Shown one piece after another: positions 12,589-36,589 of a stretch of DNA of 64,000 nucleotides. The position numbers were made by a program, and so were the translations under genes. Below the pieces are notes generated by a model that did not search any database, had not been told where the DNA came from, and was given only the letters and a program-made list of their open reading frames with translations. This stretch comes from Bacillota bacterium (lineage in GTDB: Bacteria > Bacillota > Clostridia > Christensenellales > SZUA-584): the NCBI GenBank assembly GCA_023412005.1, contig JAEYOE010000012.1, positions 324,693 to 388,692 on the forward strand, given 5' to 3'. Position 1 is the first letter of the stretch, and every line of letters begins with the position of its first letter.

Positions 12589-12603
12589 ACTGTAATGAGG
12601 GTA

Positions 12604-12635
12604 AATGGCGGCAGCAACGCTGCCGCCATTTTCTT
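12604..12635 (+). terminator. Stem-loop / partial terminator after the binding-protein gene
   Basis: Stem AATGGCGGCAGC / GCTGCCGCCATT followed by TTCTT. It sits inside the operon, before the ATPase gene. Confidence 0.65.
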
Positions 12636-12709
12636 AAATTGAGAATGAAAAGGCTTATATTGAGCCGTTAAGCGGATACGTTTAAGTTTTTTAAACAAGG
12701 AGTGGTCGC

Positions 12710-14263: not shown

Positions 14264-15477
14264 ACAAACTGAAAGATATGATCAGCCGCAATACGCGGCA
14301 ATACGGGATGCTGTTCGCCTTGCTTGTCATCATGATCTTTTTCGGGATTATGACGGGCGGCAGCTTAATATGGCCGAGAAATGTATCAATGCTCGTGCGT
14401 CAAAACAGCTATGTTTTGATACTGGCCACAGGCATGATGCTCTGCATTCTCACGGGCGGCAACATCGACTTATCTGTCGGTGCGATTGTGGCTCTGGTCA
14501 GCGCGATGTCGGGGCTCATGGGCACAACGCTTGGCTTGCCCGCATGGCTGGCGATTATCATCGCTTTAATAACCGGTCTGCTGGCCGGCATGTGGCAGGG
14601 CTTCTGGATCGCGTTTGTCAAGGTTCCGCCGTTTATCACGACACTCAGCGGTATGTTGGTTTTTCGCGGACTCAACAACATTATTCTTGACGGGCAGACA
14701 TTGGGTCTTCCAGATCTCTTCAAGGTGATCGGGGGCGGCTCAGTTCCGGATGTCATGCCGAAAACTGTGCCGGATTTTCTCGGTATCGGCAGCTTGCTTA
14801 ATCTCGAAAACAAAGTGGAGTTCCTGAATGTCACGACGCTGATTGTCGGACTTGTGCTTTCTGTCATTTACGTCCTTTATTTGTTCTGGAACAGAAGAAG
14901 CAAACTGGCGCGCGGTTATGAAGCGGCTTCGTTCAAGTCGGTTGTTGTGAAGGCTGTTGCGTTCTTCCTCATTATCAACATCTTCTCTTACTGGCTCGCT
15001 ATGGACGAAGGTATCCCGATCCTGCTGATCGTGGTCGCTCTTGTTTTCGCGGTCTACACTTTCATTGCAACCAAGACGATCCCCGGGCGCCACCTATACG
15101 CCATGGGCGGCAATATAAAGGCAGCCGAGCTTTCAGGCATCAACACAAAAAAGATGATGTTCCTCGTGTATTCGAACATGGGGCTGCTCTCGGCGATCGC
15201 CGCTATCATTGTTGCAGGCCGGTTGAATGCTTCTTCGCCAAATGTCGGCACAAACTATGAGCTTGATGCCATCGGCGCGTGCTTCATCGGCGGTGCTTCA
15301 GCATACGGCGGTATCGGCACCATCTGGGGCGCCATGGTTGGCGGCTTCATCATGGGTGTTATGAACAACGGTATGTCGATACTCGGCGTTGACGTGTTTA
15401 TTCAGTTGGTTGCCAAAGGGCTCGTTGTGCTGCTCGCGGTTGCTTTTGACACATACACGAAGTCCAAATCAAGGTAA
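14260..15477 (+). CDS. mmsB: Sugar ABC transporter permease (MmsB/GguB-like)
   Basis: Polytopic membrane protein. ATGA overlap with the ATPase gene. Confidence 0.9.
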   Translation: MNKLKDMISRNTRQYGMLFALLVIMIFFGIMTGGSLIWPRNVSMLVRQNSYVLILATGMMLCILTGGNIDLSVGAIVALVSAMSGLMGTTLGLPAWLAIIIALITGLLAGMWQGFWIAFVKVPPFITTLSGMLVFRGLNNIILDGQTLGLPDLFKVIGGGSVPDVMPKTVPDFLGIGSLLNLENKVEFLNVTTLIVGLVLSVIYVLYLFWNRRSKLARGYEAASFKSVVVKAVAFFLIINIFSYWLAMDEGIPILLIVVALVFAVYTFIATKTIPGRHLYAMGGNIKAAELSGINTKKMMFLVYSNMGLLSAIAAIIVAGRLNASSPNVGTNYELDAIGACFIGGASAYGGIGTIWGAMVGGFIMGVMNNGMSILGVDVFIQLVAKGLVVLLAVAFDTYTKSKSR

Positions 15478-15670
15478 AACGAATCATCTTGTTCGTTATC
15501 AATTCTGACTGCGGACAGGATTGCCAAGAAAGGCCTGAAGAACAGCTGTCAATACAACTGTTTGGATGGCCTTTCTGATATAACCGGGCTTATCTCTGTT
15601 GCCCTCATCGCGTTTGTGTTATAATTCACACAGATACATCCAGTAAAAAATTAAAGGCAGGTTTCGTCGA

Positions 15671-16222
15671 ATGAAGGCTAAGATAACTCATTCAAAGGCC
15701 GGTGAAACGCAGTTGAATTACATCCGAATATACGACAAGCAGCTTTTTCGTTTTCGCATTTTAAAAAAAATTATTGAGGACGCTGGCAATCAAGCCGTAT
15801 TGCTGATTGATACGAATCAAAGCTTATATAAAAATTCCGGCCTCGGTGTATTGGATGGCCTGAGTCAAGCGGGAATAGAACCCGCTGTCATTAAAATTCC
15901 TGTTAACTCGAAATCATTCTTCGGCGTCCAAGTTAACTTCTTAAGCAAAAGTCAAACAGAGTATTTGATTTGTCTGGAGCTTAAGGACCAGCCGCTTACC
16001 GAAAAAATATTTGGCCCTGTGTCTGTATGCGACATTGCGGTGGGTATCAATCAGACAGAACCGATAACCAACCAATTCGGCATGGCCGGCACAGAACCAA
16101 TGATGCTGCTGAAAACCAGCTTTAAGAACTATGTTTACGATTCTATACTGTGTCAATGTATGAACAGCAACTTTGATTTTGCACGATATCTAGGGGAAAT
16201 CGCTGATGAAATGGGTTTATAA
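15671..16222 (+). CDS. Hypothetical 183-aa cytoplasmic protein at the head of the xylose sensor operon
   Basis: Open frame with no signal peptide and no motif I recognise. Its 3' end overlaps the next gene by 17 nt. The SD is weak. Confidence 0.4.
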   Translation: MKAKITHSKAGETQLNYIRIYDKQLFRFRILKKIIEDAGNQAVLLIDTNQSLYKNSGLGVLDGLSQAGIEPAVIKIPVNSKSFFGVQVNFLSKSQTEYLICLELKDQPLTEKIFGPVSVCDIAVGINQTEPITNQFGMAGTEPMMLLKTSFKNYVYDSILCQCMNSNFDFARYLGEIADEMGL

Positions 16223-17201
16223 AACGGCTTTCGGGCTGCTGGTGGCCGTAACAATGGCCGCGGCAGCAGGGTCGTTGTATTTGTATTCACGAGTGAATAG
16301 TATCAATACAACCGAGAGGTACGAATTCCGAAACTATCCTGAGTTTTATTTTTCGTTGATTTTCAACACTCAGGATGATATTTACTGGAAAGAATTTAAG
16401 GAAGGGGCTACCGACGCTGCCAAGCTGTTTAATGTTGCCGTGGAATTCAACGAGGTTCCGGGCCCCGAGAGCAAGGCGAAAATTGTCGAATATATCAACA
16501 TCGCCGTGCAATCGAAGATGGACGGCATAATTGTAACCGGAGAGAGCACTGAAGAGTATAACGAAGCCGTCAGACAAGCCGTCGAATCGGATATCAATGT
16601 GCTTGTGGGCAAGTACAATGCGCTGGAAAGTGACAGAGTGGCTGAGGTGGGAACCAACAGTTATGAATATGGCGCTGATGCCGCAAAACTAATTCTGGAG
16701 CTTGAAAAAGAAGAGGAAGATTCAATTGATCTCGCGATTATACTGTCTGAGGATTTTGTTCAGGATGATGCAATGAACCCGTCACAGAACATGATCACCG
16801 GAATCAGCAAGAAACCCATCAATATTGTCAGTACGTCGTATGGCAAAAGTGGTCTTTTAGGCGCCGAAGACCGTATACGCACCACGCTGACAGAGCATCC
16901 CGATATTGATGTGATTCTTTGCACGAATGCAAAGGATACCATATCTGCTGTCAACGTTATCAGAGAGCGTAATTTGGTTGGCAAGGTTGAAATTGTGGGA
17001 ACGGGTATGACAGAGCAGATTATAGACTATATCAAAAAAGGCGTGATATTCGGCGTGATCGACAGGAAGGGTTATGAAGCCGGTTATGAAAGCGTGAAGG
17101 CGCTGTATCAAAGCATGGGCGGAACGTTTTCCAATAAGTTTATGGACATTAACACCAACACCTATACCGCCGAGAATATCTCGAGTTATGTGAAGCCATG
17201 A
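16206..17201 (+). CDS. Membrane-anchored periplasmic-binding-protein (type I) sensor component
   Basis: A single N-terminal TM helix followed by a PBP type I fold. SD AGGGGA. The stop overlaps the kinase start. Confidence 0.8.
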   Translation: MKWVYKTAFGLLVAVTMAAAAGSLYLYSRVNSINTTERYEFRNYPEFYFSLIFNTQDDIYWKEFKEGATDAAKLFNVAVEFNEVPGPESKAKIVEYINIAVQSKMDGIIVTGESTEEYNEAVRQAVESDINVLVGKYNALESDRVAEVGTNSYEYGADAAKLILELEKEEEDSIDLAIILSEDFVQDDAMNPSQNMITGISKKPINIVSTSYGKSGLLGAEDRIRTTLTEHPDIDVILCTNAKDTISAVNVIRERNLVGKVEIVGTGMTEQIIDYIKKGVIFGVIDRKGYEAGYESVKALYQSMGGTFSNKFMDINTNTYTAENISSYVKP

Positions 17202-18748
17202 AAACGAAGATGTTTAACAAGCTGACAGGAAAAGTGTTTCACAGCGTGCGAACGCGTATGATTCTTGTTTATGTGCTAACGACTGTGCTTATGAGCATCA
17301 CAAGTGTGTTCATTCTTGTGATTTCGGGAAACCTGATCACGCAAATGGATGATATGTTTTCCGCAAACGTTCAAATTGAAGAGTTCATGGGAACAATGCA
17401 GAAAGTTGATGCGAATCTCGCGACGTATTTGAGCAGCGACGATTCTGACAGCCTGCTTGACTATTACAGAACAAGAGATGTCTTGCATGAACAGGCAGGC
17501 CGGATGTTCGATGCAAAGCGGGGTAATTACGATCAGGACGACTTAATTTACAGAGACATTTCCAACATGGTCGAGTCTTACATTGACAAGACGGATATGG
17601 CGGTAAGCAACAAACAGCTTGGCGATGCCGATCAATACATCACTCATTATTCCAAAGCCAATGAGGTTGCGGATTATATCAAGACATATGCGGATCGGCT
17701 CAATTTAAGCAAGGTGAGAATGAACACCACGCAATATCTGGGTATGGCTGATGATTTAAAGACACTGAGCTTCACCAATATCATTTTGATTGTTAGCGTG
17801 ATTTTGCTCAACATTATTATGATTACGAACATGACATACAAAATGACGCACCCGATTATAAAACTCGCGTCGTCGGCGGAGGAGATATCCACCGGCAATT
17901 TTGATATCGAAGATATTGAGGTGGCATCAAAAGACGAGATCAGCATTATGGCGGGTGCCTTTAATGCCATGAAGCACAGCATTAAAGAATACATCAGCGA
18001 GCTTCATGACAAAGCAGATACAGAATCTCAGCTGCTCGAGCAGCAAATCGAGAATCTGAAAATTCAGTCACTGCTGGTGGATGCGCAAATCAAGGCATTG
18101 CAAATGCAGATCAATCCGCATTTTTTGTTTAATACGCTCAATGCCGGTATGCAGCTTGCCATGCTGGAAGGGGCCGAGCGCACATCCGGTTTTCTTGATG
18201 ACATATCGAAAATGTTCCGCTACAATGTAAAAGGATTAAACCGCAAGGTGAAGCTCAAGGAAGAGATCGATTCTGTGCGTGCTTACAGCAACCTGATTTA
18301 TGTGCGGTTTGGCGATATTATTAAATTCAACTACAACATCGATTGCAGCGTGCTTGATATTGATGTGCCGCCGTTGATTATTCAGCCGCTTGTGGAAAAT
18401 GCGACGATTCACGGCATCGGCAATTTGGAGCAGGGCGGTACAATTTCTATTTCAATTGAAAATGACGAGGACTGCGTGCGCATTTCAATTGAGGACGATG
18501 GAATAGGCATAAATGAAAGCACAAAGCAAAAGATATTGGATTGTGAACTGTTCGACAGCGAAAAATCGGGGCATACCACAGGAATCGGTATTGCGAATGT
18601 TGTGCAAAGGCTGCGGTTGTTTTTCGGCGTTGAAGATGTGATTGAGATTAACAGCAGCCCAAACCACGGAACTGAGATTATACTGAAAATTCCGCTTTAT
18701 TCAAATTATAAAATATCGTCGGATGAGGAGAATGACCAAAATGTATAG
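17198..18748 (+). CDS. Sensor histidine kinase, His_kinase (LytS/YesM) type with HAMP
   Basis: QINPHFLFNTLN H-box and HATPase motifs (ENATIHG, DDGIGI, GIGIANV). Two TM helices. Confidence 0.9.
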   Translation: MKTKMFNKLTGKVFHSVRTRMILVYVLTTVLMSITSVFILVISGNLITQMDDMFSANVQIEEFMGTMQKVDANLATYLSSDDSDSLLDYYRTRDVLHEQAGRMFDAKRGNYDQDDLIYRDISNMVESYIDKTDMAVSNKQLGDADQYITHYSKANEVADYIKTYADRLNLSKVRMNTTQYLGMADDLKTLSFTNIILIVSVILLNIIMITNMTYKMTHPIIKLASSAEEISTGNFDIEDIEVASKDEISIMAGAFNAMKHSIKEYISELHDKADTESQLLEQQIENLKIQSLLVDAQIKALQMQINPHFLFNTLNAGMQLAMLEGAERTSGFLDDISKMFRYNVKGLNRKVKLKEEIDSVRAYSNLIYVRFGDIIKFNYNIDCSVLDIDVPPLIIQPLVENATIHGIGNLEQGGTISISIENDEDCVRISIEDDGIGINESTKQKILDCELFDSEKSGHTTGIGIANVVQRLRLFFGVEDVIEINSSPNHGTEIILKIPLYSNYKISSDEENDQNV

Positions 18749-20318
18749 TCTGATGGTGTTTGATGACGAACAAATCGTCATAGAATCGGTTAAGCACATC
18801 GTGGATAATGAATTCACGAACATCCAGGTGACGCAGACGGCGCGCTCGGGCCGGGAAGCGATAGAAAAGGTGCGGCTGGAGCGTCCAGATATCATTTTGA
18901 CCGACATTCGGATGCCGGGCATTAATGGCCTTGAAGCCGTCAAGGAGATTAAGAAAATACACCACAATATCAAATTCATCATCATGTCGGTGTATGAGTA
19001 TTTTGAGTTTGCACAGCAGGCTGTGGAGCTCGGTGCCTGCGAATATTTAACCAAGCCGGTTAATCGCGCGCGGCTGGTGGAAACGCTGGAACGCATTGTG
19101 CGCGAGCTGGATGAGGAAAAACGCAAGTTCGATCAGGAATTGGAGACTAAAGAGAAACTGGACAAAATGCTTTCTGTTTTGGAGCACAGCTTTATTTATT
19201 CACTGCTGCTTTCTCAGGAAGCGGATATCGGCCGCTATAAAGAGCTTTTTGATATTCAATGCGAAACAGGCTACATATTTATTTTAACCTTTGGCGAACG
19301 ATCTTATCAGGAACAAGGCGTGGCTTTGGGTGACAGTGTTCAAAATCAAAAATTCTATACATTTTTCAGAGACAGCCTCAAATACAAAAGCAAATGCATT
19401 GTGGGGCCGGTGATGCTTGATCGCGTCGTGGTATACGTGGCGCAAAGCGTCGAAGATGAATACACACAGCGTGTGGCAGCCATCTCAAACATTGAAAACA
19501 TTGTTAGAAAAATTGAGCACAAGTACAATATGAAATTCAAGGTGGGAATCGGGAAAATCCACTCGGACAGAGATATCCTCATTTCGTATCAAGAAGCTTT
19601 AAAAGCGCTAAACCATACTGAAGGGCAGAAAATCATTCATATTGACGACATCGCACCGAACATTTCCACAATGGGGTTTGAGATGTTCGCGGAGGAAAAC
19701 AGACTGATAAAGGCGATTGAAAAAGGAGACGCGCAGCTTTGTCTTTCCATCTTGACGGATATGTTCAATAAGTATGATAATATTATGGAACAAGAAGGTG
19801 TCCGCAACAGACTTATTGAAATAGTGATTGTGGCACATCGGTTGGCCATGGAAAGCGGCGTGGAGAACGACAAGTGCATTGAATACTCCGATTATTTGTC
19901 TCAACTGCTTGGATGCACCTCTCGGCTGGCGTTTGAGCAGATGCTGATTGAAAAAATCGGCGGCATCGCGCGCCGCATCAGCCGGTCGAAAGAAAAAACC
20001 ATCGGCTTTATTGTGGATAAAGCCAACAAAATCATTGGTGAACGCTTCAATCAGGAACTGACACTTGATGATATCTCTAAAGAACTTTACATAAGCCCGC
20101 AATATTTCAGCAGGCTTTATAAACAGGAAATGGGCACAAACTTCATAGAAAAGCTGACAGCTGTACGTATGGAAAACGCAAAGAAACTGATGAAGAGCGG
20201 TGAGTTGTCAATAAAAGAAATATGCTATATGTCGGGATACAGCGACCCCAATTACTTCAGCAGACTTTTTAAAAAATTCGAAGGCGTATCTCCGTCAACC
20301 TACCAGAAGCAAATTTAA
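18741..20318 (+). CDS. YesN-type response regulator (REC + AraC HTH)
   Basis: REC motifs (VFDDE, ILTDIRMPG, KP). C-terminal AraC HTH (YFSRLYKQEMG...GYSDPNYFSRLFKK). I prefer the ATG at 18741 (GAGGAG SD). Confidence 0.9.
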   Translation: MYSLMVFDDEQIVIESVKHIVDNEFTNIQVTQTARSGREAIEKVRLERPDIILTDIRMPGINGLEAVKEIKKIHHNIKFIIMSVYEYFEFAQQAVELGACEYLTKPVNRARLVETLERIVRELDEEKRKFDQELETKEKLDKMLSVLEHSFIYSLLLSQEADIGRYKELFDIQCETGYIFILTFGERSYQEQGVALGDSVQNQKFYTFFRDSLKYKSKCIVGPVMLDRVVVYVAQSVEDEYTQRVAAISNIENIVRKIEHKYNMKFKVGIGKIHSDRDILISYQEALKALNHTEGQKIIHIDDIAPNISTMGFEMFAEENRLIKAIEKGDAQLCLSILTDMFNKYDNIMEQEGVRNRLIEIVIVAHRLAMESGVENDKCIEYSDYLSQLLGCTSRLAFEQMLIEKIGGIARRISRSKEKTIGFIVDKANKIIGERFNQELTLDDISKELYISPQYFSRLYKQEMGTNFIEKLTAVRMENAKKLMKSGELSIKEICYMSGYSDPNYFSRLFKKFEGVSPSTYQKQI

Positions 20319-20330
20319 GGGAGGTTTTTC

Positions 20331-21374
20331 ATGAAAAGAATCACAGTGGTTGCGATGGTGCTGCTGATGCCGTTATTGTTTGGCTGCCAATCCGCCCAAG
20401 TCTATAAGAACGACGACGGTGTTATTAAGATTGGATTTATGACGGATACGATGACGGTGGAGAGATGGGCCAGAGACAGGGACATTTTCGTCAAAAAGGC
20501 GGAAGAACTCGGAGCCACCGTGACTGTTCAAAACGCCTACGAAGACAGTGAACGTCAAAAGAAAATCGGAAAAGAAATGATCGATGAGGGCGTGGATGTT
20601 TTGGTGGTGGTTGCATACGATAAAGATTCGCTGTCGGATTTGGTGAAGTACGCTCAAAGTCAAAACGTTAAATTCATTGCGTACGACAGGCTGATCATGA
20701 ATGCCAATGTGGATCTTTACATTTCGTTCAACAATTACTCGGTGGGCCAGCTTATGGCGCAAAAGGCGGTGGAAAATGTTCCGAAGGGCAACTATCTGAT
20801 TCTTAACGGCCCTGAAACCGATAACAATGTCTCGATGATCAACAGCGCCTGCAGCGAGGTATTGGACCCGTATGTCAATGCCGGTGATATTAAAATAGTG
20901 GGCAAAACGTTTATCGATGCATGGCGCGATGAGGTGGCCTATGAATATGTCAGTGAGAAAATTGGCGAGGGGGTACACATTGACGCAATTATAGCGGGGG
21001 ATGACAGACTTGCGGAAGGTGCCATCAACGCGTTAAGTGAAAACCGGTTGGCCGGCAGTGTGTATGTAACCGGGCAGGATGCAGAGCTTGGGGCGTGCCA
21101 GCGGATAGTGGAAGGAACGCAGCATATGACGGTGTATAAGCCGATTGGTGTGCTGGCAGAGGGGGCCGCTGAGATTGCCGTAAAAATGGCATTAGGCGAA
21201 AAACTATCGAATGCGGGCACAATTAACGACGGGACGTATGATGTGCCGTATATCGTATACGAACCCACACCGGTGACGCGTGAAAACATCAACGATGAGA
21301 TCATCAAAGGCGGGTTTTACACAATTGAGCAAGTGTACAAGAACGTGACCGACAAAAGCTTGTGGCCAAAATAA
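20331..21374 (+). CDS. D-xylose-binding lipoprotein, XylF/XylFII-like
   Basis: Colinear with E. coli XylF (ERWxxDRDIFVKKAE, GVDVLV, AYDRLI, YISFNN, GQDAELxxxQRIxxGTQxMTVYKPI). Lipobox LLFGC. Confidence 0.9.
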   Translation: MKRITVVAMVLLMPLLFGCQSAQVYKNDDGVIKIGFMTDTMTVERWARDRDIFVKKAEELGATVTVQNAYEDSERQKKIGKEMIDEGVDVLVVVAYDKDSLSDLVKYAQSQNVKFIAYDRLIMNANVDLYISFNNYSVGQLMAQKAVENVPKGNYLILNGPETDNNVSMINSACSEVLDPYVNAGDIKIVGKTFIDAWRDEVAYEYVSEKIGEGVHIDAIIAGDDRLAEGAINALSENRLAGSVYVTGQDAELGACQRIVEGTQHMTVYKPIGVLAEGAAEIAVKMALGEKLSNAGTINDGTYDVPYIVYEPTPVTRENINDEIIKGGFYTIEQVYKNVTDKSLWPK

Positions 21375-21425: not shown

Positions 21426-23666
21426 TTAATGAGAAACCAATGCGGTCAGATCTTTATGAAGTGCCGACATCGCTGTATCGGTTGGTGTGTTATGCTGCAA
21501 AATATCCATGATGTGCTTGTAGATCAGCGCTTCAATTACGTTAACCGGCACCAATGAGCCATCCGGCTTGCGGACGGATTTACGCTGAACATTGCCGGGA
21601 TACGATTTGTATATCAGCGGCAGCCACGGGTAGTGATTGGCCAGTTCGTCGTTTGTGTAAACGTTCTTCAAAGGAGACTGACCATCGAGAATTGTGAAGT
21701 ATTTGCTCATATCCGAATCGCACGTCCACGCAATAAACTCAAGAGCTGCCGAAGGGTCTTGATTGGTGGAAGGCACCGCCAGACCCCAACTGCCGAGCAC
21801 AGAATGGTTTCCGGGCAGATTGGCATAGCCGATTTTACCGATGATCTTCGATTTTGCAATGTTGTTGACATCCGCAATAAACGCCGCGAAACTCACCAAC
21901 ATCGCGATCTTTCCGAGATAAAAATCCTCGACGGTTTTTTCGACGTTATAGGAAAGCGTTTGAGGCGGCGCATATTTGAATGCCTCGACAAGGCTGTTGA
22001 CACTCTTTTTGAATGCTGACGTGGTGACGAGCGGGTTCCCGTCGTCATCGAACACGCAGGTGTTATAAGCCCACACGCGTGAGAGCAGCTCGGGCAGCAG
22101 ATGCGCGTTGTTGCGCGCCGAGAAGGCGGTTCCGTAATCCACCGGAGACAGCGGGTTGATTGATTTCGTAAAAAAGCTGCTGATGACATTGAACTCAAAC
22201 CAGGTTCTCGGCACACGAAGCTTCGTTCCGTATTTTTTTTCAAACAGCTCACACAGCCTCGGGTTTTCAAACAAATCACGGCGATAGAGCAAAAATTGCG
22301 GCCCAAACAGAAACGGTATACCGAAGTAACGGCCGTCTGTCTTACCGACTTTCTCCGCAAGACCGTCAAGAAAAACGGATTTGTCGATAAAGCTTGACTT
22401 GATATGATCGCTGATATCCATTAGAACATTCTCTTCCACCAGAATATCCAGCCATGGGTTATCATACATACACACATCAAAGCCCGAAAGATAATCTTTA
22501 TCCATGAGCCTTGAAAGCAGTTCGCCGTGCTCGCATAAAGTCACATCCACGTCTATTCCGGTTTTTCGCGTAAAGACGGAATGGGTGCGGATAATACCAT
22601 GCGCATTGGGCGAATCGAGAAACAGAACGCGCAGTGTTTTTTCAATTGGTTTGCGCGGGCTGACCGGTGCCTTGCTCGCTTCGAAAAGATTCTTGCCTAT
22701 GATTTTGTCGTTGAGTATGATCTGCTGTTTCTCGAACATTAACGGGCTGTCGATATTGTTGAGCATCAGTTTTGCGGCCTTTGTCCCTAAATAATAGGCC
22801 GGCCGCATGGTGAATATAATGTTGTTATATTTTAGTATGCTCGACAGCGTTTCCTGACCGATTGACACCATAACCATGTCATCATACAGCGAAATTCCGG
22901 CGAGATAGGCCGCCTGCTCCAAACCGTTGGTTAGCAGCTGAGATGTGGATATGACGGCCTGCGGCGAATAATCCTGAAAAAGAGATATGCCGGTACGAAA
23001 GGCCTCTTCTTTGGTCATATTGATGTGACGAATCAGATTGGGGTCAGTCTCAATATGGCGTTCATGAAAGAAGTCGCGGTAGGCCTTTGCATACTTTTGT
23101 TCACAGGAGAAGTGCTCCTGCCCGGCCACCAGTGCAATTTTGGTGCAACCGTTGTCATACAACTGGTTTAACAGGTAAGTCATTGTTTCATACTGGTTGA
23201 AGGAAACGTAATTCGAATCGTATGACGTGACTTTTCTGTCGATGAAAAGCATAGGGATGTCGGTTAAGTTGTCGTAAAAAGCGTGCTCTTTCAGACAAGA
23301 CATGATAATAAGCCCGCCGACGTTTTTCCTTAATAGGTTGTTCACAATGGCTGTTTCGGTCTCGGGGACATCACCGGTCAGTGAAAGATTGACATAATAG
23401 CCGGCTTTTTTAAACTCGGCTTCAATGCCTTCAAAGATATAGCTGTAATAGTGCTCGGACGTGTTCGGCAGCACAACACCAATTTCCATATTGCTGTTGG
23501 AACGAAGATTTTTTGCGTATGGATTGGGTCTGTAATTCAGCTCGTCGATCGCTGCTTTAATCTTGTCGGCTGTATCAGCCATCACATGCTTGGCTCCGGT
23601 TAAGTAATTGGATACAGTGCCGACAGAAACCCCGGCGAATTTTGCCACATCTTTTATTGTGCTCAT
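21426..23666 (-). CDS. LacI-family regulator fused to an extra family-1 solute-binding-protein domain (746 aa)
   Basis: HTH MSTIKDVAKFAGVSVGTVSNYLTG, then a LacI-type PBP core to about aa 330. From about aa 345 there are SBP_bac_1-like motifs (LLYRRDLFENP, PRTWFEF, LGSWGLAVPSTNQDPSAALEFIAW). No signal peptide or TM helix. Confidence 0.85.
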   Translation of the reverse strand: MSTIKDVAKFAGVSVGTVSNYLTGAKHVMADTADKIKAAIDELNYRPNPYAKNLRSNSNMEIGVVLPNTSEHYYSYIFEGIEAEFKKAGYYVNLSLTGDVPETETAIVNNLLRKNVGGLIIMSCLKEHAFYDNLTDIPMLFIDRKVTSYDSNYVSFNQYETMTYLLNQLYDNGCTKIALVAGQEHFSCEQKYAKAYRDFFHERHIETDPNLIRHINMTKEEAFRTGISLFQDYSPQAVISTSQLLTNGLEQAAYLAGISLYDDMVMVSIGQETLSSILKYNNIIFTMRPAYYLGTKAAKLMLNNIDSPLMFEKQQIILNDKIIGKNLFEASKAPVSPRKPIEKTLRVLFLDSPNAHGIIRTHSVFTRKTGIDVDVTLCEHGELLSRLMDKDYLSGFDVCMYDNPWLDILVEENVLMDISDHIKSSFIDKSVFLDGLAEKVGKTDGRYFGIPFLFGPQFLLYRRDLFENPRLCELFEKKYGTKLRVPRTWFEFNVISSFFTKSINPLSPVDYGTAFSARNNAHLLPELLSRVWAYNTCVFDDDGNPLVTTSAFKKSVNSLVEAFKYAPPQTLSYNVEKTVEDFYLGKIAMLVSFAAFIADVNNIAKSKIIGKIGYANLPGNHSVLGSWGLAVPSTNQDPSAALEFIAWTCDSDMSKYFTILDGQSPLKNVYTNDELANHYPWLPLIYKSYPGNVQRKSVRKPDGSLVPVNVIEALIYKHIMDILQHNTPTDTAMSALHKDLTALVSH

Positions 23667-23732
23667 TGTACTCCGCCTCTGATAAATTCAATACATTATA
23701 AAATATAAAAAAACAAAAATCAACAGATTTAA

Positions 23733-23744
23733 TGAAACGTTTCA
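23733..23744. promoter_or_regulatory. Candidate LacI-type operator O1, TGAAACGTTTCA
   Basis: Perfect 12-bp palindrome with the AAACGTTT core used by the PurR/RbsR-type LacI subfamily. It lies about 70 bp upstream of the regulator start. Confidence 0.55.
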
Positions 23745-23797
23745 AAAATAATCTTATTAATAGATAATAAGCAATACAAACGCGAAAATTGTCTGGA

Positions 23798-23811
23798 TTG
23801 AAACGATTCAA
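23798..23811. promoter_or_regulatory. Candidate LacI-type operator O2, TTGAAACGATTCAA
   Basis: Imperfect palindrome (TTGAA/TTCAA arms) 22 bp upstream of the -35 element of the ABC operon promoter. Confidence 0.45.
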
Positions 23812-23832
23812 AAGAAATTTAAATGAATACAA

Positions 23833-23860
23833 TTGACTTTTTTTCTGGATGCTTTATAAT
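23833..23860 (+). promoter_or_regulatory. Sigma-A-type promoter of the ABC / rare-sugar operon
   Basis: TTGACT-16 nt-TATAAT. Confidence 0.6.
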
Positions 23861-23963: not shown

Positions 23964-25454
23964 GTGGCTGAAGTATTGCTTGAAATGACCGGTATTCAAA
24001 AGTACTTTCCAGGTGTTCACGCATTGGACAACGCTGCTCTTTGTGTGAACAAAGGTGAGGTGCATGCACTCGTGGGAGAAAACGGGGCAGGCAAATCAAC
24101 GCTGATGAAGGTGCTGTCGGGTATTTATAAAAAGGACGGCGGCTCGATCAAATTCCGGGGCAACGAGGTAGAGCCGACAGACCCAAGACACGCTCAGACG
24201 CTCGGCATAGGTATTATTCATCAGGAACTGAATCTGATGCCGCATCTGACGGTTGCTCAAAACATCTTTATCGGCAAGGAACCGACAAAGGGACTGTTTA
24301 TTGACCAAGGCTCTGAAAACAAGCAAGCCAAGGAGATGCTTTCGGCACTGAACATAGACATTGACCCGTCTATTAAAGCCGGCAGGCTGACGGTGGCGAT
24401 GCAGCAGATGGTTGAAATCGCCAAAGCGCTCTCGTATAACAGCGAGCTGTTGATTATGGATGAGCCGACAGCGGCATTAACCGAAAGTGAAATTCAGGAG
24501 CTGTTTAAAGTCATCCGCGACTTGCGGGATAAAGGACACGGCATCATCTATATTTCACATCGTTTGGATGAACTGCCGCAAATCAGCGACCGTATTACCG
24601 TTATGCGTGATGGCCAATATGTAGGCACTGAGGAAACCAAGGCGGTGACCAAGGAAAAAATCATCAGCATGATGGTGGGACGCACGATTTATGAAAAGCC
24701 CAAATCGCACAGCACGGTTGAGGCAGATGCGCCCGTTGTTTTAAAAGTTGAAAACTTAATAGCCAATAACGTCAAAGATGTTTCGTTTGAGCTTAGAAAA
24801 GGCGAAATACTTGGGTTTGCTGGGTTAATGGGTGCGGGGCGCACTGAGACCATGCGCGCTCTGTTTGGGGCTGACCCCACAGTAAGCGGAAACGTTTATG
24901 TCGATGGAAAGAAAGTCCACATCAAATCGCCGAACGATGCGATATCACACGGTATCTGCTATTTATCCGAAGACAGAAAAGCCTTTGGTCTCACAGTTGG
25001 GTTAAGCGTAAGAGACAACTGCGTGTTGGCGTCTATGGACGAATTTATGAGGGGCCCTTTTACGAATGATAAAAAGATCGACGCAATAACGGAAGAATAC
25101 ATAAAAAAGATTGATATTAAGACGCCGTCGGGCAAACAGCTGGTCAGGAACTTATCCGGCGGCAATCAGCAAAAGATCGTTATAGCCAAATGGCTTATCA
25201 GAAACAGCGATATTCTGATATTCGACGAGCCAACGCGCGGCATCGACGTTGGGGCCAAGCAGGAGATATACAAGCTGATGAATGCGCTGGCTTCCGAAGG
25301 AAAATCGATCATCATGATATCGTCTGAAATGCCCGAATTGCTTCGTATGAGCGACAGACTTGTTGTAATGTGTGAAGGCAGTGTCACTGGTGAACTGGAT
25401 ATCGCCGAAGTCACACAGGAAAAAATCATGACTTTAGCAACAATGAATATGTGA
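23964..25454 (+). CDS. Sugar ABC transporter ATP-binding protein (RbsA-like, duplicated ABC)
   Basis: GTG start with an AAAGGA SD. Two Walker A / LSGGNQQK signatures. Confidence 0.93.
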   Translation: MAEVLLEMTGIQKYFPGVHALDNAALCVNKGEVHALVGENGAGKSTLMKVLSGIYKKDGGSIKFRGNEVEPTDPRHAQTLGIGIIHQELNLMPHLTVAQNIFIGKEPTKGLFIDQGSENKQAKEMLSALNIDIDPSIKAGRLTVAMQQMVEIAKALSYNSELLIMDEPTAALTESEIQELFKVIRDLRDKGHGIIYISHRLDELPQISDRITVMRDGQYVGTEETKAVTKEKIISMMVGRTIYEKPKSHSTVEADAPVVLKVENLIANNVKDVSFELRKGEILGFAGLMGAGRTETMRALFGADPTVSGNVYVDGKKVHIKSPNDAISHGICYLSEDRKAFGLTVGLSVRDNCVLASMDEFMRGPFTNDKKIDAITEEYIKKIDIKTPSGKQLVRNLSGGNQQKIVIAKWLIRNSDILIFDEPTRGIDVGAKQEIYKLMNALASEGKSIIMISSEMPELLRMSDRLVVMCEGSVTGELDIAEVTQEKIMTLATMNM

Positions 25455-25463
25455 GGTTAATGT

Positions 25464-26450
25464 ATGGAAACCAAAAGTGTAGCAAAAAAAAGACTTGATT
25501 GGACAAAATTATTGGCGCCGGCTGTTCTTGTCATATTGTACATCTTTTTCTCGGCGTTCGGTAATAATTTCTTCTCGGTAGATTACTTGGTCAATATTCT
25601 CGACGGATCTTACTTCATCGGCTTTATGGCCATCGGTGTGACGTTCGTTATCATCACAGCCGGTATTGATCTTTCACTCGGCACGAATATGATGTGTGCG
25701 GCGCTGCTTGGCGGCTATGCGTTTAACAACCTTGGGTGGCCGATGGGTGCCTGCCTGCTTCTTGTTATTCTGACGGCAACCGTTATGGGCTTTTTAAACG
25801 GTATCATGGTTGCTTACCTAAAGCTGCCTCCGTTCATTGCCACATTGGGCATGATGATGATCGGTATGGGTTTTGGTGCCATTGTGACCAAGGTTCAAAC
25901 CATGAGATATCCGACATTCGGAACGCCGGAAGGCTGGTTCAAGAATGTGTTTTACAAAACGGCAGATGGCATTCCGCTCGGCGCTATCTGGCTGGCGGCG
26001 TTCATCATTATCGCATTCCTGCTGCTGAATAAAACAAAATTCGGCCGGTATACATTTGCGATCGGTTCCAACGTGGAAGCGGCGCGTCTGTCGGGTATCA
26101 AAACCCGCCCGTGGCTGACGGCAGTCTACACATTCTGCGGTTTTTGCAGCGGTCTTGCAGGCGTGATGTACGCAGCGGTGTACACCTCCATCATTCCTTC
26201 CACCGGTAACGGCCTTGAGCTTCTCGGTATCGCGGGCGTGGTTATCGGCGGGACGAGCATGAGCGGCGGCACCGGCACGCTGGTCGGCACCATTATCGGT
26301 GTGTTCATCATGAGTGTGCTCAAGCAAGGGCTTATGTCGATGGGGCTGCAGAGCCATTGGCAGACGTTCTTCACAGGTATCGTCGTTATCGCGGCTGTGC
26401 TGCTTGACCAGTACCGTATCAGAAAAGGCAATCAGGTTAAAAAGGCATAA
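25464..26450 (+). CDS. Sugar ABC transporter permease (RbsC-like)
   Basis: Polytopic membrane protein with GIDLSLG and GGTSMSGG motifs. Confidence 0.9.
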   Translation: METKSVAKKRLDWTKLLAPAVLVILYIFFSAFGNNFFSVDYLVNILDGSYFIGFMAIGVTFVIITAGIDLSLGTNMMCAALLGGYAFNNLGWPMGACLLLVILTATVMGFLNGIMVAYLKLPPFIATLGMMMIGMGFGAIVTKVQTMRYPTFGTPEGWFKNVFYKTADGIPLGAIWLAAFIIIAFLLLNKTKFGRYTFAIGSNVEAARLSGIKTRPWLTAVYTFCGFCSGLAGVMYAAVYTSIIPSTGNGLELLGIAGVVIGGTSMSGGTGTLVGTIIGVFIMSVLKQGLMSMGLQSHWQTFFTGIVVIAAVLLDQYRIRKGNQVKKA

Positions 26451-26524
26451 AGTTACCGTTTATTGGTACAATGAATGACATCCTCGGGAATTTCCCGTTG
26501 GACAATAAAGAGGAGGATATAAAC

Positions 26525-27670
26525 ATGAAAAAAGCTCTATTGATGATGCTGACATTGGCAATGGTATTGTCTCTGGTTGCGTGCGGAGCACCGCAGACGT
26601 CTCCTTCGGCCAGCGAATCCGCTCCTGCTGAATCTTCGGCAGTTGTCTCGGAAGAACCGTCGGCTGAAGCACCTGCTGCGAAGCCGTACATCGCAGTTAT
26701 CTCCAAGGGTTTCCAGCACAAGTTCTGGCAGACAGTGCTTGCTGGCGCAACCGATGCTGCTAAAAAGTATGATGTGGACATGTCGTTCGACGGACCTCCG
26801 TCCGAGTCGGATATTCAGGTTCAGGTTGACATGGTGAACGCAGCTCTTGCGAAGAACCCTGCAGCTCTGAGTCTTGCGGCTCTTGATACCGAATCCTTAA
26901 ACGAGCAGCTCAACACCTGCATCGAGAAGAAGATTCCGGTTATCGGTTTTGACTCCGGCGTTCCGAATGCTCCCGAAGGCGCTATCGTTTCCACAGCTTC
27001 CACAGATAACGAAGCTGCCGGCGCTCTCGCAGCTGAAAACATGTATGCGAAAATCAAAGACGCTGTTGCCGGTGCTTCCAAGAGCAAACCCGTTGTGATC
27101 AGCGTTATCAGCCAGGATGCAACATCTGCTTCCATCACAGGCCGTACAACCGGTTTTGTGAACAAGATGTTCGAGCTTTGTGATGCGGCTCAGTCCGGCC
27201 TTGTTGCTGTGACCGGCCATGACAAATGGGCGAAAGCTTCCAGCGGTGATGTTGCGGTTGAAATCCTTGTTTCCATCGCGGCTTCCACCAGCGTAACAGA
27301 CTGCCAGACGGCTGCTCAGGCTGTTCTTTCCAAGAACCCCATTGGCGTGTTCTGCACAAACTCCGGTTCTGTTGATGGCATGCTGGCTGCAACGACCGAC
27401 GGTTCTGACCTTGACCGTGCAAGCGGAAAATACAAGAACGTTATCGTTGTTGGTTTCGACTCCGGCGCAACGCTGCTGAATGCAATCGAAAAAGGCTGGT
27501 TCGATGGTGCTGTGACACAGGATCCGTACATGATCGGCTACTTGGCGATTGAACTCGCTGTGAAGACTCTGAACGGCGAAAAAGTTGAGCCCCTTGTTGA
27601 CACAGGCTGCAAGTACTACACAGTTGACAACATGAAAGACGAAGACATCGCGAAACTGCTGTACGAATAA
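26525..27670 (+). CDS. Sugar ABC transporter substrate-binding lipoprotein (PBP type I, RbsB-like)
   Basis: Lipobox LSLVAC. An AGGAGG SD precedes the ATG at 26525. PBP type I fold. Confidence 0.88.
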   Translation: MKKALLMMLTLAMVLSLVACGAPQTSPSASESAPAESSAVVSEEPSAEAPAAKPYIAVISKGFQHKFWQTVLAGATDAAKKYDVDMSFDGPPSESDIQVQVDMVNAALAKNPAALSLAALDTESLNEQLNTCIEKKIPVIGFDSGVPNAPEGAIVSTASTDNEAAGALAAENMYAKIKDAVAGASKSKPVVISVISQDATSASITGRTTGFVNKMFELCDAAQSGLVAVTGHDKWAKASSGDVAVEILVSIAASTSVTDCQTAAQAVLSKNPIGVFCTNSGSVDGMLAATTDGSDLDRASGKYKNVIVVGFDSGATLLNAIEKGWFDGAVTQDPYMIGYLAIELAVKTLNGEKVEPLVDTGCKYYTVDNMKDEDIAKLLYE

Positions 27671-27695
27671 GCATTTAGACAATCTAGGTAGATGG

Positions 27696-27716
27696 GGGCA
27701 GCCGTAATGGCTGCCC
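27696..27716 (+). terminator. Stem-loop after the binding-protein gene (no clear T tract)
   Basis: GGGCAGCC-GTAAT-GGCTGCCC. Confidence 0.4.
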
Positions 27717-27797
27717 TCACTGCTAATATGAAATTTTTGTGAAGAAATGAACAAAACCTGTTCGGGAATGATTTGAAAAAGGAATGGGGTTAAGAAT

Positions 27798-28244
27798 ATG
27801 TTACTAGGCATACCCAAGTTATTATCACCTGAAATTATCGCAACATTATGTGAAATGGGCCATAGTGATGTCATTGTCATCGGTGACGCAAACTTTCCGG
27901 GAAAACGCTTTGCGACAGAAGGCGGCTGCAAGTTTTTACGTGCAGACGGACTATCCGGCACAGCGCTGCTGGAAGCGATACTGTCCGTGATACCTTGCGA
28001 TACATACACAGAGCATCCCGTTAAACTGATGCAGACGATGGACTGTGACCGTGATTTGAAAATACCCATTTGGGATGAATACAAAAGCATCGTCGCGAAG
28101 CACGATTCGCGTGGCGACAAAGCCATCGGATTTGTTGACAGATTCGATTTTTATGATCAGGCAAAGCAATCATATTGTATTATTCAGTCCGGCGAAGAAG
28201 CGATTTACGCCAATGTTATGATTCAAAAGGGAGTCATCAAATAA
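27798..28244 (+). CDS. RbsD/FucU-family sugar mutarotase
   Basis: MLLGIPKLLSPEIIATLCEMGHSDVIVIGDANFP is the typical FucU/RbsD N-terminus. Confidence 0.85.
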   Translation: MLLGIPKLLSPEIIATLCEMGHSDVIVIGDANFPGKRFATEGGCKFLRADGLSGTALLEAILSVIPCDTYTEHPVKLMQTMDCDRDLKIPIWDEYKSIVAKHDSRGDKAIGFVDRFDFYDQAKQSYCIIQSGEEAIYANVMIQKGVIK

Positions 28245-29755
28245 TGGCCGGGGAGTTGTTGCTTGGTATAGATATTGGAACAAGCGGCTGCAAGATCGCA
28301 TTGTTTTCGCGGGACGGAAGCGTTATATGCTCGGATACAGAAGAGTATCCGGTTTATTATCCTGCGCCAGGGTTTGTTGAGCAGGATCCGGACGAATGGT
28401 GGGAAGCCATCTGCCGCGGCACAAAGAAGCTCATCGAGCGAAACAGCATCAATACGGCTGAAATTGCCGGTGTGGGTGTAGACGGACAAAGCTGGGCGGC
28501 GATCGCTGTAGATGAAAACGGTGATGTGCTGACCCGCAATCCGATATGGATGGATACAAGATCTGAATCAATATGCCGGGAGCTCAATGAGTCGGTGGGT
28601 GAAGATCGGCTATTTGCCGTGTCCGGCAATCCGCTAAAAGCGCAATACACAACCGGAAAGATTATTTGGTACAAGAAAAACAAACCGGATGTTTATAATA
28701 AAATTAACAAGATACTGCAGTCGAACAGCTATATCGTTTACCGAATGACCGGTGTGATGAGCCATGATATGTCACAAGGTTATGGTCTTCATTGCTTCAA
28801 CATGAAAAAGGGCACATGGGACATGCAAATGTGCAGCGCGCTCGGCATTAACAGCAGCGTATTGCCGGATCTGGCGGCATGTCACGACGTTGTGGGCACC
28901 ATAAGCAAAAGTGCCGCGGCAAAAATGGGGCTGGTTGAAGGCATTCCGGTGGTTGCGGGCGGCTTGGATGCCGCATGCGGAACACTGGGAGCCGGCGTGC
29001 TGGAGCATGGGCAAACGCAGGAGCAGGGTGGGCAGGCAGGCGGTATGAGCATCTGCCTGAAAGAATACTGTGCCGACAAACGTTTGATACTGGGCTATCA
29101 TGTGGTGCCAGATAGATGGCTGCTGCAGGGCGGTACAACGGGCGGCGGCGGCGTGATGCGCTGGTTTCACGAGCAGTTTGGGTTTGAAGAGCAGCTTAAA
29201 GCCGCGCAAACGGGCGGTTCCTCCATGGCGCTGCTCGATGAACTTGCAAATACAGTGCCTGTCGGTTCAGATGGCGTGGTGTTTTTGCCATACATGGCCG
29301 GAGAACGCTCTCCCATTTGGGATGAAAAAGCCAAAGGTGTATTCTACGGGCTGGATTATTCAAAAACGAAAGCCCATCTGACGCGTGCGTTGATGGAAGG
29401 GGCAGCTTATGCGCTGCTTCATAATATTGAAGTGGCTGAAGGTGCCGGTGCCGCTGTCGGGACGATGCGCGCCATGGGCGGTGCAGCAAACTCACGTTTC
29501 TGGACGCAGATGAAAGCGGATTTGACCGGAAGGCCGATTGAGGTTCCGGGCTCAGATACCGCAACAACCTTGGGCGCTGCTTTGCTGGCGGGCGTTGGTG
29601 TGGGCGTTTACAGCGATTTTGCCGAGGCTGTTTCCGAAACGGTTAAGGTGAAAAGAACGCACGAGCCAAACAAGCAGCTAAAAGAAGAATACAATCGCGG
29701 TTACAGCACATATTTGGCGCTTTACGCCGCGTTGAAAGATTTAATGCATCAGTAA
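28244..29755 (+). CDS. FGGY-family carbohydrate kinase (xylulokinase-like; substrate unknown)
   Basis: LGIDIGTSGCK phosphate-1 motif and FGGY C-terminal motifs. TAATG overlap with the FucU-like gene. Confidence 0.88.
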   Translation: MAGELLLGIDIGTSGCKIALFSRDGSVICSDTEEYPVYYPAPGFVEQDPDEWWEAICRGTKKLIERNSINTAEIAGVGVDGQSWAAIAVDENGDVLTRNPIWMDTRSESICRELNESVGEDRLFAVSGNPLKAQYTTGKIIWYKKNKPDVYNKINKILQSNSYIVYRMTGVMSHDMSQGYGLHCFNMKKGTWDMQMCSALGINSSVLPDLAACHDVVGTISKSAAAKMGLVEGIPVVAGGLDAACGTLGAGVLEHGQTQEQGGQAGGMSICLKEYCADKRLILGYHVVPDRWLLQGGTTGGGGVMRWFHEQFGFEEQLKAAQTGGSSMALLDELANTVPVGSDGVVFLPYMAGERSPIWDEKAKGVFYGLDYSKTKAHLTRALMEGAAYALLHNIEVAEGAGAAVGTMRAMGGAANSRFWTQMKADLTGRPIEVPGSDTATTLGAALLAGVGVGVYSDFAEAVSETVKVKRTHEPNKQLKEEYNRGYSTYLALYAALKDLMHQ

Positions 29756-29768
29756 AGGAAAAATAGAA

Positions 29769-30818
29769 ATGAAAGCAGCAGTTGTCGTTGCAAATGAAGA
29801 TGTGAGGTATATGGATATCGAGGAGCCTCAGGTAAAGCCGGGCACCGTTAAGGTTAAGGTCGCGGTATCGGGAATCTGCGGTTCGGATATTCCGCGCGTA
29901 CTGGAAAACGGCGTGCACTTTTACCCGATTGTGCTCGGTCATGAGTTTGCCGGTGTGGTGGTGGATACTGGGGAAGGCGTAACGTCCGTTAAGGTCGGAG
30001 ACAAGGTGGCGGGCGCACCGCTCGTGCCCTGCATGGCTTGCGGTGATTGTCAGAAGGGCAATTACGCGCTCTGTAAGCATTATAGCTTTATCGGCTCGCG
30101 TCAGCAGGGCAGCAACGCGGATTACGTTGTGATTCCCGAACGCAATGCTGTTGTGTTCGATCCATCCATAAGCTATGAGCAGGGGGCCATGTTTGAGCCG
30201 TCAACAGTGGCGCTTCACGGTGTGCTGCAGTGCGATTACCGCGGCGGCGGCACGGTGGCGATATTGGGCGGCGGCACCATCGGAATATTCACGCTTCAAT
30301 GGGCCAAATTGCTCGGCGCGAAGAAAACCGTGGTTTTCGATATCAGCGATGAAAGGCTGGCGCTGGCAAAAAAATTGGGCGCGGATGCCGTTGTCAACAC
30401 GCTTAAAGACGGGTTTATGGAAGAAGCGCTGTCGTATACTGACGGCAGCGGTTTTAACTACGTGTTTGAAACAGCCGGTGTAACAATCACGATGAAAATG
30501 GCTTATAAGCTGGCTGCCACAAAAGCGCATGTGTGCTTTATTGGTACACCGCATGCCGACTTAACGTTCACCCCCGCCGAATGGGAGAACATGAACCGAA
30601 AGGAATTCAGGCTGACAGGATCATGGATGAGCTACAGTGCGCCATTTCCCGGCGTTGAGTGGACCATGACCGCCGAGTATTATGCGCAGGGCAAGCTCAA
30701 ATTTGACGAAGGCCTGATCGGTGAGCGCATACCGATGGAAAACGCGCAGGAAGCGTTTCAGATGTTTAAAACGCCGGGAGCGGTTAAAGGCAAGATACTA
30801 CTCACAAACAATATTTAA
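29769..30818 (+). CDS. Zn-dependent dehydrogenase, galactitol-1-phosphate 5-dehydrogenase (GatD)-like
   Basis: Colinear with E. coli GatD: GICGSDIPRVLENGVHFYPIVLGHEFAG, HYSFIGSRQQGSNADYVVI, LTGSWMSYSAPFPGVEW. Confidence 0.8.
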   Translation: MKAAVVVANEDVRYMDIEEPQVKPGTVKVKVAVSGICGSDIPRVLENGVHFYPIVLGHEFAGVVVDTGEGVTSVKVGDKVAGAPLVPCMACGDCQKGNYALCKHYSFIGSRQQGSNADYVVIPERNAVVFDPSISYEQGAMFEPSTVALHGVLQCDYRGGGTVAILGGGTIGIFTLQWAKLLGAKKTVVFDISDERLALAKKLGADAVVNTLKDGFMEEALSYTDGSGFNYVFETAGVTITMKMAYKLAATKAHVCFIGTPHADLTFTPAEWENMNRKEFRLTGSWMSYSAPFPGVEWTMTAEYYAQGKLKFDEGLIGERIPMENAQEAFQMFKTPGAVKGKILLTNNI

Positions 30819-30832
30819 AGGAGGAAATAAAA

Positions 30833-36587: not shown

Positions 36588-36589
36588 CC

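Follow-up and report, generated by a model that had tools for sequence, protein, structure and literature searches.

A LacI-family regulator carrying a transporter-type solute-binding protein fold, a candidate intracellular sensor beside a sugar or polyol operon of a Bacillota bacterium

LacI/GalR repressors such as CcpA, RbsR, PurR, and LacI combine an N-terminal helix-turn-helix (HTH) and hinge helix with a regulatory core of the periplasmic-binding-protein (PBP) type I fold and bind palindromes with a central CG beside sugar operons. Transporter-type binding proteins may also serve signaling rather than transport, as in sensors of the XylFII-LytS-YesN type and in ChvE-VirA, LuxP-LuxQ, and TorT-TorS, where a separate extracellular solute-binding protein (SBP) acts on a membrane kinase. 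Within the cell, PBP folds are reused as effector sensors of one-component regulators: Escherichia coli XylR joins a PBP type I domain to an AraC DNA-binding domain, and LysR-type regulators have an effector domain of the type II PBP fold. In the same way, Bacillus subtilis AraR joins a GntR HTH to a LacI-type core (PMC1950556). Here we describe a regulator gene in a 64,000-nucleotide stretch of contig JAEYOE010000012.1 of a Bacillota bacterium (hereafter the window). The protein shares the HTH, hinge helix, PBP type I core, and operator type of the LacI/GalR repressors but differs from them in about 400 extra C-terminal residues that form a second, type II binding-protein fold and in a divergent core that lacks effector residues of the R197/N246/D274 type. 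Whereas AraR, XylR, and the LysR-type regulators have one sensor fold, this is a full LacI protein with its PBP type I fold and, in tandem, an SBP_bac_1-family domain; and in contrast to the membrane kinase systems, its SBP is cytoplasmic and covalently joined to the DNA-binding output. What is new is the joining in tandem of two known themes, the LacI regulator and the binding-protein fold redeployed for sensing inside the cell, and we suggest below that effector recognition may have moved from the core to the SBP domain. To our knowledge, the tandem arrangement of LacI core and SBP has not been studied so far; a full-text literature search found no characterized LacI-SBP fusion, which is absence of evidence only, as many subscription papers lie outside its coverage.

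The regulator is encoded on the minus strand at 21426 to 23666 by a single open reading frame (ORF) of 746 aa, which starts with ATG, contains 0 internal stops according to the ORF list and translation, and ends in a stop codon at 21426 to 21428; a Shine-Dalgarno-like GAGGCGGAG lies ~8 nt 5′ of the ATG. The initial annotation, made from the sequence alone, had proposed exactly such an uninterrupted frame, with a LacI HTH, a normal LacI core, and a family-1 SBP in the last ~400 residues. The peptide motifs that it quoted are all present in the translation (MSTIKDVAKFAGVSVGTVSNYLTG at aa 1 to 24, LLYRRDLFENP at aa 459 to 469, PRTWFEF at aa 486 to 492, and LGSWGLAVPSTNQDPSAALEFIAW at aa 624 to 647), and Pfam returned the families that it expected, namely, the LacI HTH (PF00356; aa 3 to 48, E = 5.7e-16, 58.5 bits versus a cutoff of 27), Peripla_BP_1 (PF00532; aa 60 to 305, E = 3.2e-8, 33.8 bits versus a cutoff of 22.2), SBP_bac_1 (PF01547; aa 365 to 647, E = 8.2e-21, 75.7 bits versus a cutoff of 26), and SBP_bac_8 (PF13416; aa 365 to 670, E = 2.9e-16). 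Its description of the core as normal did not hold, because Peripla_BP_3 (PF13377) and Peripla_BP_4 (PF13407) scored just below their Pfam cutoffs there and the canonical effector residues are replaced. The core therefore looks weaker and more divergent than in ordinary family members. None of the NCBIfam equivalogs was approached by the regulator, CcpA (TIGR01481) reaching 126.2 bits against a cutoff of 442.35.

The layout of the whole gene, drawn from the ORF list, Pfam, an AlphaFold2 (AF2) model, and full-length homologues, comprises four segments, all on the minus strand. The LacI-type HTH and hinge helix (YRPNPYAKNLRS) occupy aa 1 to 58 (23493 to 23666); the hinge, at aa 45 to 56, follows the pattern Y-x-P-N-x-x-A-x-x-L and aligns with the hinges of LacI and PurR, and its Y45 and A51 are invariant in the family. 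The divergent LacI/GalR core spans aa 59 to 325 (22692 to 23492) and has CcpA, RbsR, and PurR as its nearest solved relatives. A hypervariable tether of ~17 aa (aa 326 to 342; 22641 to 22691) leads to a complete family-1 (CUT1) SBP fold at aa 343 to 746 (21429 to 22640), which is recognized by PF01547, PF13416, Foldseek, and conservation statistics and begins exactly at the first strand of a mature SBP. Consistent with the initial annotation, no signal peptide, lipobox, or transmembrane segment was found in the regulator, whose N terminus is the HTH. The maximum of hydrophobicity (19-residue Kyte-Doolittle mean of 1.72 at aa 582 to 600) falls in a stretch that aligns with the SBP "GxxAM" segment (residues 220 to 234 of the maltose-binding protein [MBP]) and is modeled within the globular SBP domain. 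The regulator is a cytoplasmic LacI-family protein with two different periplasmic-binding-protein folds.

The initial annotation had also suggested structure prediction with a Foldseek comparison, and both halves were recovered as expected. The AF2 model, built with 56 family sequences, had a mean predicted local distance difference test (pLDDT) value of 89.9 and a predicted template-modeling score (pTM) of 0.79, with low confidence restricted to the hinge (aa 51 to 57), as is expected of a LacI-type hinge without DNA, and to the linker (aa 330 to 336, pLDDT < 50). Against the PDB, the N-terminal half matched RbsR, CcpA, PurR, and LacI (probability of 1.00 for the first three), and the C-terminal half matched 5IAI best, with a template-modeling (TM) score of 0.86 normalized by target and covering the whole SBP, followed by other whole CUT1 SBPs (Thermotoga maritima MalE3, Lin1841, Thermococcus litoralis TMBP, and 4RYA). 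Sequence searches concurred, pointing to CcpA for the core and to 5IAI and 4RYA for the SBP half, and no PDB chain spanning both halves was among the 50 best Foldseek matches listed. With CUT1 SBPs such as 5IAI (Agrobacterium radiobacter Arad_9887, ribitol complex) and 4RYA (A. vitis sorbitol/mannitol SBP), the regulator shares the complete two-lobe fold, the YRKDLF, PxTW, and GGWxLGI hallmarks, and polar or aromatic cleft residues, but it is only ~20% identical to them, lacks a signal peptide and lipobox, follows a DNA-binding regulator part in the same chain, and is not encoded with CUT1 permeases, the adjoining transporter being of the CUT2 type with its own PBP type I SBP. Ligand-bound structures fit the model slightly better than apo structures for both MalE3 (0.85 for 6DTQ versus 0.78 for 6DTR) and Lin1841 (0.85 to 0.86 for 5YSD-F versus 0.82 for 5YSB), suggesting that the modeled domain is a closed, intact flytrap. 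We estimate that independently placed modules of 404 and 267 aa would give a pTM of ~0.54 and that the value of 0.79 obtained implies a mean intermodule error of ~7 Å. Because this pTM is beyond the reach of independent modules, AF2 appears to predict a defined packing of the core against the SBP.

The LacI-SBP fusion is a stable conserved family, neither a one-off nor an assembly error. A word-indexed search gave at least 120 clusters at 90% identity, all 720 to 790 aa long with an identical Pfam set, the most distant being 25% identical to the query. The survey of the architecture that the initial annotation had envisaged was extended by an exhaustive phmmer search of 1.84 billion 50%-identity representatives, which returned 424 proteins at an E value of ≤1e-30, most of the best 150 being single full-length matches. 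Relatives accounted for 394 of the first 600 pattern matches among species-representative genomes, with Christensenellaceae, Lachnospiraceae, Oscillospiraceae, Sphaerochaeta, Treponemataceae, Flexilinea, Calditrichales, and Actinomycetota represented. A protein search also found the architecture in a protein from a metagenome-assembled genome (MAG) of Planctomycetota, and the phyla carrying the fusion are Bacillota, Spirochaetota, Chloroflexota, Calditrichota, Actinomycetota, and Planctomycetota. The window's own protein is present in the collection, its nearest species representatives being Christensenellaceae and Bacillota MAGs at 64 to 75% identity, and several assemblies hold two paralogues (L003/L071, L004/L076, L006/L080, and L058/L061). 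The architecture is visible in precomputed Pfam annotations under misleading names: NCBI and JGI list relatives as "extracellular solute-binding protein" (e.g., WP_062280531.1 and WP_158351303.1) or "multiple sugar transport system substrate-binding protein," and UniRef names some of them "Transcriptional regulator, LacI family."

Between distant pairs, identity is 25% in the LacI core, 28% in the SBP half, and 8% in the linker (8 to 11% pairwise), so that both halves diverge equally under similar purifying selection and the linker is unconstrained. Across the family, the segment corresponding to aa 318 to 345 varies from 18 to 47 residues (mostly 25 to 28) and is rich in K, P, and S. Positions invariant across the six subfamilies that we distinguish (G6, to which the window belongs, and G8, G11, G13, G15, and G17) number 12 of 58 in the HTH and hinge, 3 of 267 in the LacI core, and 28 of 404 in the SBP half, the last including D397, D402, W405, Q457, Y461, R462, D464, E526, R530, W627, W647, Y679, P680, and W681. 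Two short relatives stand apart from this pattern. P0257 (422 aa) is a stand-alone SBP-like domain without a signal, 36% identical to aa 342 to 717 and beginning a few residues before the first strand, and P0218 (369 aa) is a LacI part that terminates shortly past the linker; natural splitting, a frameshift, or truncation at a contig end could account for them.

Pocket and interface residues were assigned by alignment to LacI, PurR, and MBP, checked at landmark residues. For the core, MAFFT and an independent hhalign alignment (probability of 99.9% to LacI and 100% to PurR) agreed. Pocket residues of the R197/N246/D274 type are typical of the LacI/GalR family, if not strictly defining. In the window protein, LacI R197 corresponds to Y192 (Cys in the other subfamilies), N246 to S242 (Ser elsewhere, Asp in G17), and D274 (PurR D275) to G270 (Gly elsewhere, Asp in G17), and the classical effector triad is thereby replaced by Tyr or Cys, Ser, and Gly in five of the six subfamilies. 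Core pocket positions showed no excess between-subfamily divergence (P = 0.97). Conserved cysteines also occur in the remodeled core cleft at aa 124, 188, and 192 (nt ~23089 to 23297, minus strand), C124 being the consensus in all six subfamilies and C188 and/or C192 being found in most; they could form a metal or redox site or could merely be small hydrophobic residues.

The SBP cleft shows a different pattern. Its positions were defined via hhalign to E. coli MBP (probability of 99.1%); a strict specificity-position filter left 10 positions, too few for statistics, and a Jensen-Shannon score was used instead. Within-subfamily entropy at the cleft-equivalent positions (±1 residue) was 1.02 bits versus 1.36 bits in the rest of the domain (Mann-Whitney P = 0.001), a value reached by 9 of 396 circular shifts. 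Ligand-contact positions of MBP correspond to the invariant D402 (MBP A63), W405 (R66), and E526 (Y155) and to the near-invariant E712 (W340), which is Asp in G8. Subfamily-specific positions comprise G455 (MBP E111), A521 (E153), P525 (P154), and F596 and I597 (A231 and W232), which adjoin A595 (W230). Between-subfamily divergence was somewhat higher at cleft positions (Mann-Whitney P = 0.011), which supply 7 of the top 30 positions (permutation P = 0.02), and the per-locus signatures are near-constant inside subfamilies and different between them. Conservation within subfamilies, together with the D/W/E/E set, indicates that the cleft may well be a working ligand site. Since the core triad is lost and its pocket shows no excess variation while the SBP cleft is conserved, the data lean toward a sensor that has moved to the SBP domain.

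Candidate operators lie where the initial annotation had pointed (23733 to 23811), a region that holds two LacI-type palindromes. The putative operator O1 (AATGAAACGTTTCAAA; 23731 to 23746) contains a perfect 12-nt palindrome, TGAAACGTTTCA, at 23733 to 23744 and is the sole zero-mismatch match in the window, and the putative O2 (ATTGAAACGATTCAAA; 23797 to 23812), 66 bp from O1, has one mismatch (core TGAAACGATTCA at 23799). The two are the only matches with ≤1 mismatch in the 64 kb, and both lie inside the 297-bp divergent intergenic region. The same LacI-type palindrome, ATTGAAWCGTTTCAAT, with the central CG usual in the LacI/GalR family, occurs once per locus (≤2 mismatches) upstream of the regulator in 11 of 11 orthologous loci with upstream DNA (L002 to L015), at 18 to 104 nt 5′ of the regulator start codon in 10 of them and overlapping the start in L009. 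Half-sites are shifted in other subfamilies (TTTAAACGTTTAA and TGGAACGTTCCA), and positions 20 and 21 of the recognition helix, which belong to the small set of subfamily-specific positions, vary as well. DNA binding is probably retained throughout the family. By consensus scan only, the best promoter-like site of the regulator gene is TTGATT-17-TATAAT at 23695 to 23723 on the minus strand, with O1 9 bp upstream of its −35 box, and that of the divergent operon is TTGACT-16-TATAAT (11/12) at 23833 to 23860 on the plus strand, with O2 22 bp upstream of its −35 box; weaker alternative promoters would put the operators over or downstream of the start site.

The presumed target operon diverges from the regulator on the plus strand (23964 to 33114). 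According to Pfam and NCBIfam, it encodes a dual-ATPase ABC subunit, a BPD_transp_2 permease, a Peripla_BP_4 SBP, a FucU/RbsD-like mutarotase, a XylB-like FGGY kinase (375.6 bits versus a cutoff of 380), a GatD-like Zn-dehydrogenase resembling galactitol-1-phosphate dehydrogenase in NCBIfam, an aldo-keto reductase, and a GatZ/KbaZ-like protein, and the same divergent gene set stands beside the regulator in orthologous loci. The transport SBP at 26471 to 27670, a Peripla_BP_4 (i.e., PBP type I) protein, differs in class from the fused domain, as the initial annotation had held. The operon looks like a route for a hexitol or ketohexose as the putative substrate. The structure 5IAI contains ribitol (PMC8468352), and 4RYA was deposited as a sorbitol SBP; two polyol-associated entries among the nearest solved SBPs would fit an operon with dehydrogenase, kinase, and GatZ-like genes. 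A 409-aa antisense ORF at 26897 to 28126 (minus strand), which overlies the transport SBP and mutarotase genes and misled a greedy longest-ORF caller, is almost certainly spurious.

For context, ORFs were called in 79 related loci and the window, the ORFs were clustered, and cluster representatives were annotated, with neighbors counted over 78 loci. CUT2 (Rbs-type) importer parts are common near the regulator (dual-ATPase subunit in 55 loci, BPD_transp_2 permease in 50, and Peripla_BP_4 SBP in 53). CUT1 permease pairs (BPD_transp_1) occur within six genes in only 6 of the 78 related loci, and there is none at the window locus. Catabolic neighbors vary by subfamily: an FGGY kinase, a Zn-dehydrogenase, and often an aldo-keto reductase in G6; GH20b-like, ASRT, M24, and creatininase-like genes in G8; URO-D-like genes with or without a rhamnose-mutarotase-like gene in G13, G11, and part of G15; GFO/Idh/MocA and xylose-isomerase-like TIM (XylTIM) genes in another part of G15; and a DeoC aldolase, an FGGY kinase, an OYE flavoenzyme, XylTIM, and a Zn-dependent alcohol dehydrogenase in G17 (loci listed as L064, L068, L070, L072, L074, L076, L078, and L079). 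Directly beside the regulator, small ASRT-family proteins (PF07100) are encoded in 10 loci (e.g., L018 to L023, L041, and L044) and URO-D-like proteins (PF01208) in 23 (e.g., L024 to L042 and L057 to L073), and DUF4432, creatininase-like, and M24-peptidase-like genes also recur there. These neighbors look like parts of uncharacterized sugar-modifying pathways.

We propose that the regulator binds the 16-bp palindrome between itself and the divergent sugar/polyol operon and that its C-terminal ~400 residues are a transporter SBP that was captured, minus its export signal, as an intracellular "Venus flytrap" sensor. The SBP cleft would take up a sugar, polyol, or derivative present in the cell; closure of the cleft would be passed on through the LacI core, kept for dimerization and for coupling to the hinge helix and HTH; and affinity for the operator would shift, most likely toward derepression. 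Homodimeric repression, ligand binding in the cleft, and allosteric relay through the core are all inferred here, as is a hexitol- or ketohexose-like ligand class for the window operon, and repression is assumed from family precedent. That the captured SBP is the effector-binding module of this local regulator, probably the one that determines specificity, with the core serving dimerization and relay to the headpiece, is the best-supported reading, though it seems to us about evenly balanced between right and wrong. For the family as a whole (~400 clusters at 50% identity in at least five phyla), a general handover of effector recognition to the captured SBP, with the core as a dimerizing relay or as a second input for a common signal, is a slightly more tentative proposal, to which we give just under an even chance.

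Several observations weigh against the proposed handover. The cleft positions are defined solely by a profile alignment to MBP at 18% identity, the enrichment of between-subfamily divergence there is marginal (28 of 396 circular shifts, ~0.07, reach the observed value), and G15 shows the same cleft signature in both of its gene contexts. Each operator sits 5′ of the −35 box of the best-scoring promoter-like site, an arrangement that activation would fit as well. Conservation at the core pocket positions exceeds that of the remaining core (P = 3e-4), these positions have subfamily signatures of their own, and most G17 members (L060, L068, L070, and L072) have Asp at both the N246 and D274 equivalents, while L078 and L079 have Glu or Gln at the D274 equivalent and the five other subfamilies have Ser and Gly. 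The core pocket of G17 may have remained a classical sugar site or may bind a ligand of some kind. Such features of the core would suit a true two-input regulator, in which core pocket and SBP cleft bind different small molecules (e.g., a common metabolic signal and the pathway sugar) and DNA binding integrates both. A pocket that is well conserved and largely the same across subfamilies is the pattern expected of a common second ligand, both halves seem to be under similar purifying selection, G17 keeps Asp at the D274 equivalent, and the solved structures nearest to the core belong to CcpA proteins, which answer to global signals. However, five of the six subfamilies have small or hydrophobic residues in place of the hydrogen-bonding triad, conservation of pocket-lining residues can be purely structural at an intersubdomain hinge, and the TIGR01481 (CcpA) score is only 126 bits against a cutoff of 442. 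We consider the two-input design plausible, though less likely than the handover. Of the functional role suggested by the initial annotation, two folds in one cytoplasmic regulator are thus upheld, whereas a clean two-input logic is not what the data lean toward.

That annotation had alternatively assigned the extra domain to oligomerization or to docking on the ABC transporter. A structural module that binds no small molecule, serving DNA looping between O1 and O2 through oligomerization or docking, e.g., to the cytoplasmic face of the transporter, would accord with the position of the SBP domain in the place of the LacI tetramerization helix, the two window operators 66 bp apart, the near-constant adjacency of CUT2 transporters, and the fixed relative placement of two large modules implied by the pTM of 0.79. 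Orthologous loci have one operator each (≤2 mismatches, 11 of 11 with upstream DNA), which weakens the looping part of the oligomerization proposal, and looping was rejected as a conserved feature. Moreover, few positions are better conserved within subfamilies than the cleft equivalents, which hold the Asp/Trp/Glu/Glu set that sugar sites typically have. A place next to a transporter is usual for local sugar regulators of any kind, and docking gained no backing beyond this co-location; SBPs are known to dock on the outer face of permeases, not on the cytoplasmic face. A purely structural role is accordingly improbable in our judgment, more so than two inputs. It is scarcely credible that the gene encodes an exported or lipid-anchored transport SBP, as databases name it, or represents two genes joined by a frameshift or assembly error. 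Source annotations and the rare short relatives P0257 and P0218 speak for such readings, but the N terminus is a LacI HTH without an export signal, lipobox, or transmembrane segment, only 6 of 78 loci have a CUT1 permease pair nearby, and the single frame, for which the initial annotation had named a frameshift as the refuting case, is kept in hundreds of independent assemblies across phyla. Both possibilities were excluded for practical purposes for the window gene.

Other sugar loci flank the regulator in the window. A xylose-type locus at 11422 to 21374 starts with a XylF-like PBP type I SBP, an ATPase, and a permease (11422 to 15477) and continues at 16206 to 21374 with a TorT/XylFII-like PBP type I protein, a PF06580 histidine kinase with HAMP, a YesN-like response regulator with an AraC domain, and a second XylF-like SBP (312 bits to the XylF equivalog, a subthreshold score); the latter part resembles the SBP-dependent "three-component" sugar sensors. 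On the other side, at 33526 to 37585, lies a second three-component sensor (response regulator-AraC protein, PF06580 kinase, and PBP type I protein), followed, up to 46948, by a CUT2 transporter and araB/araA/araD-like genes (FGGY kinase, L-arabinose isomerase, and class II aldolase). With two such loci in the window, adjacent sugar loci therefore appear to use extracellular SBP sensing, whereas the locus studied here would use an intracellular SBP fusion. Upstream of the sugar loci, at 7667 to 9487, a 606-aa GGDEF-EAL protein is encoded.

The LacI/GalR proteins, on which the textbook picture of allosteric repression is built, are also a mainstay of synthetic biology. Through misnaming, inventories of regulons and transporters of gut and anaerobic-digester Clostridia, Sphaerochaeta, and Flexilinea miscount these genes. 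If the proposed handover to the captured SBP is true, the fusion family represents a natural tandem-sensor design within the best-studied repressor family. It could reveal how allostery is relayed across an added domain, and it may offer a ready-made route for plugging the large ligand repertoire of ABC-transporter SBPs into LacI-type switches.

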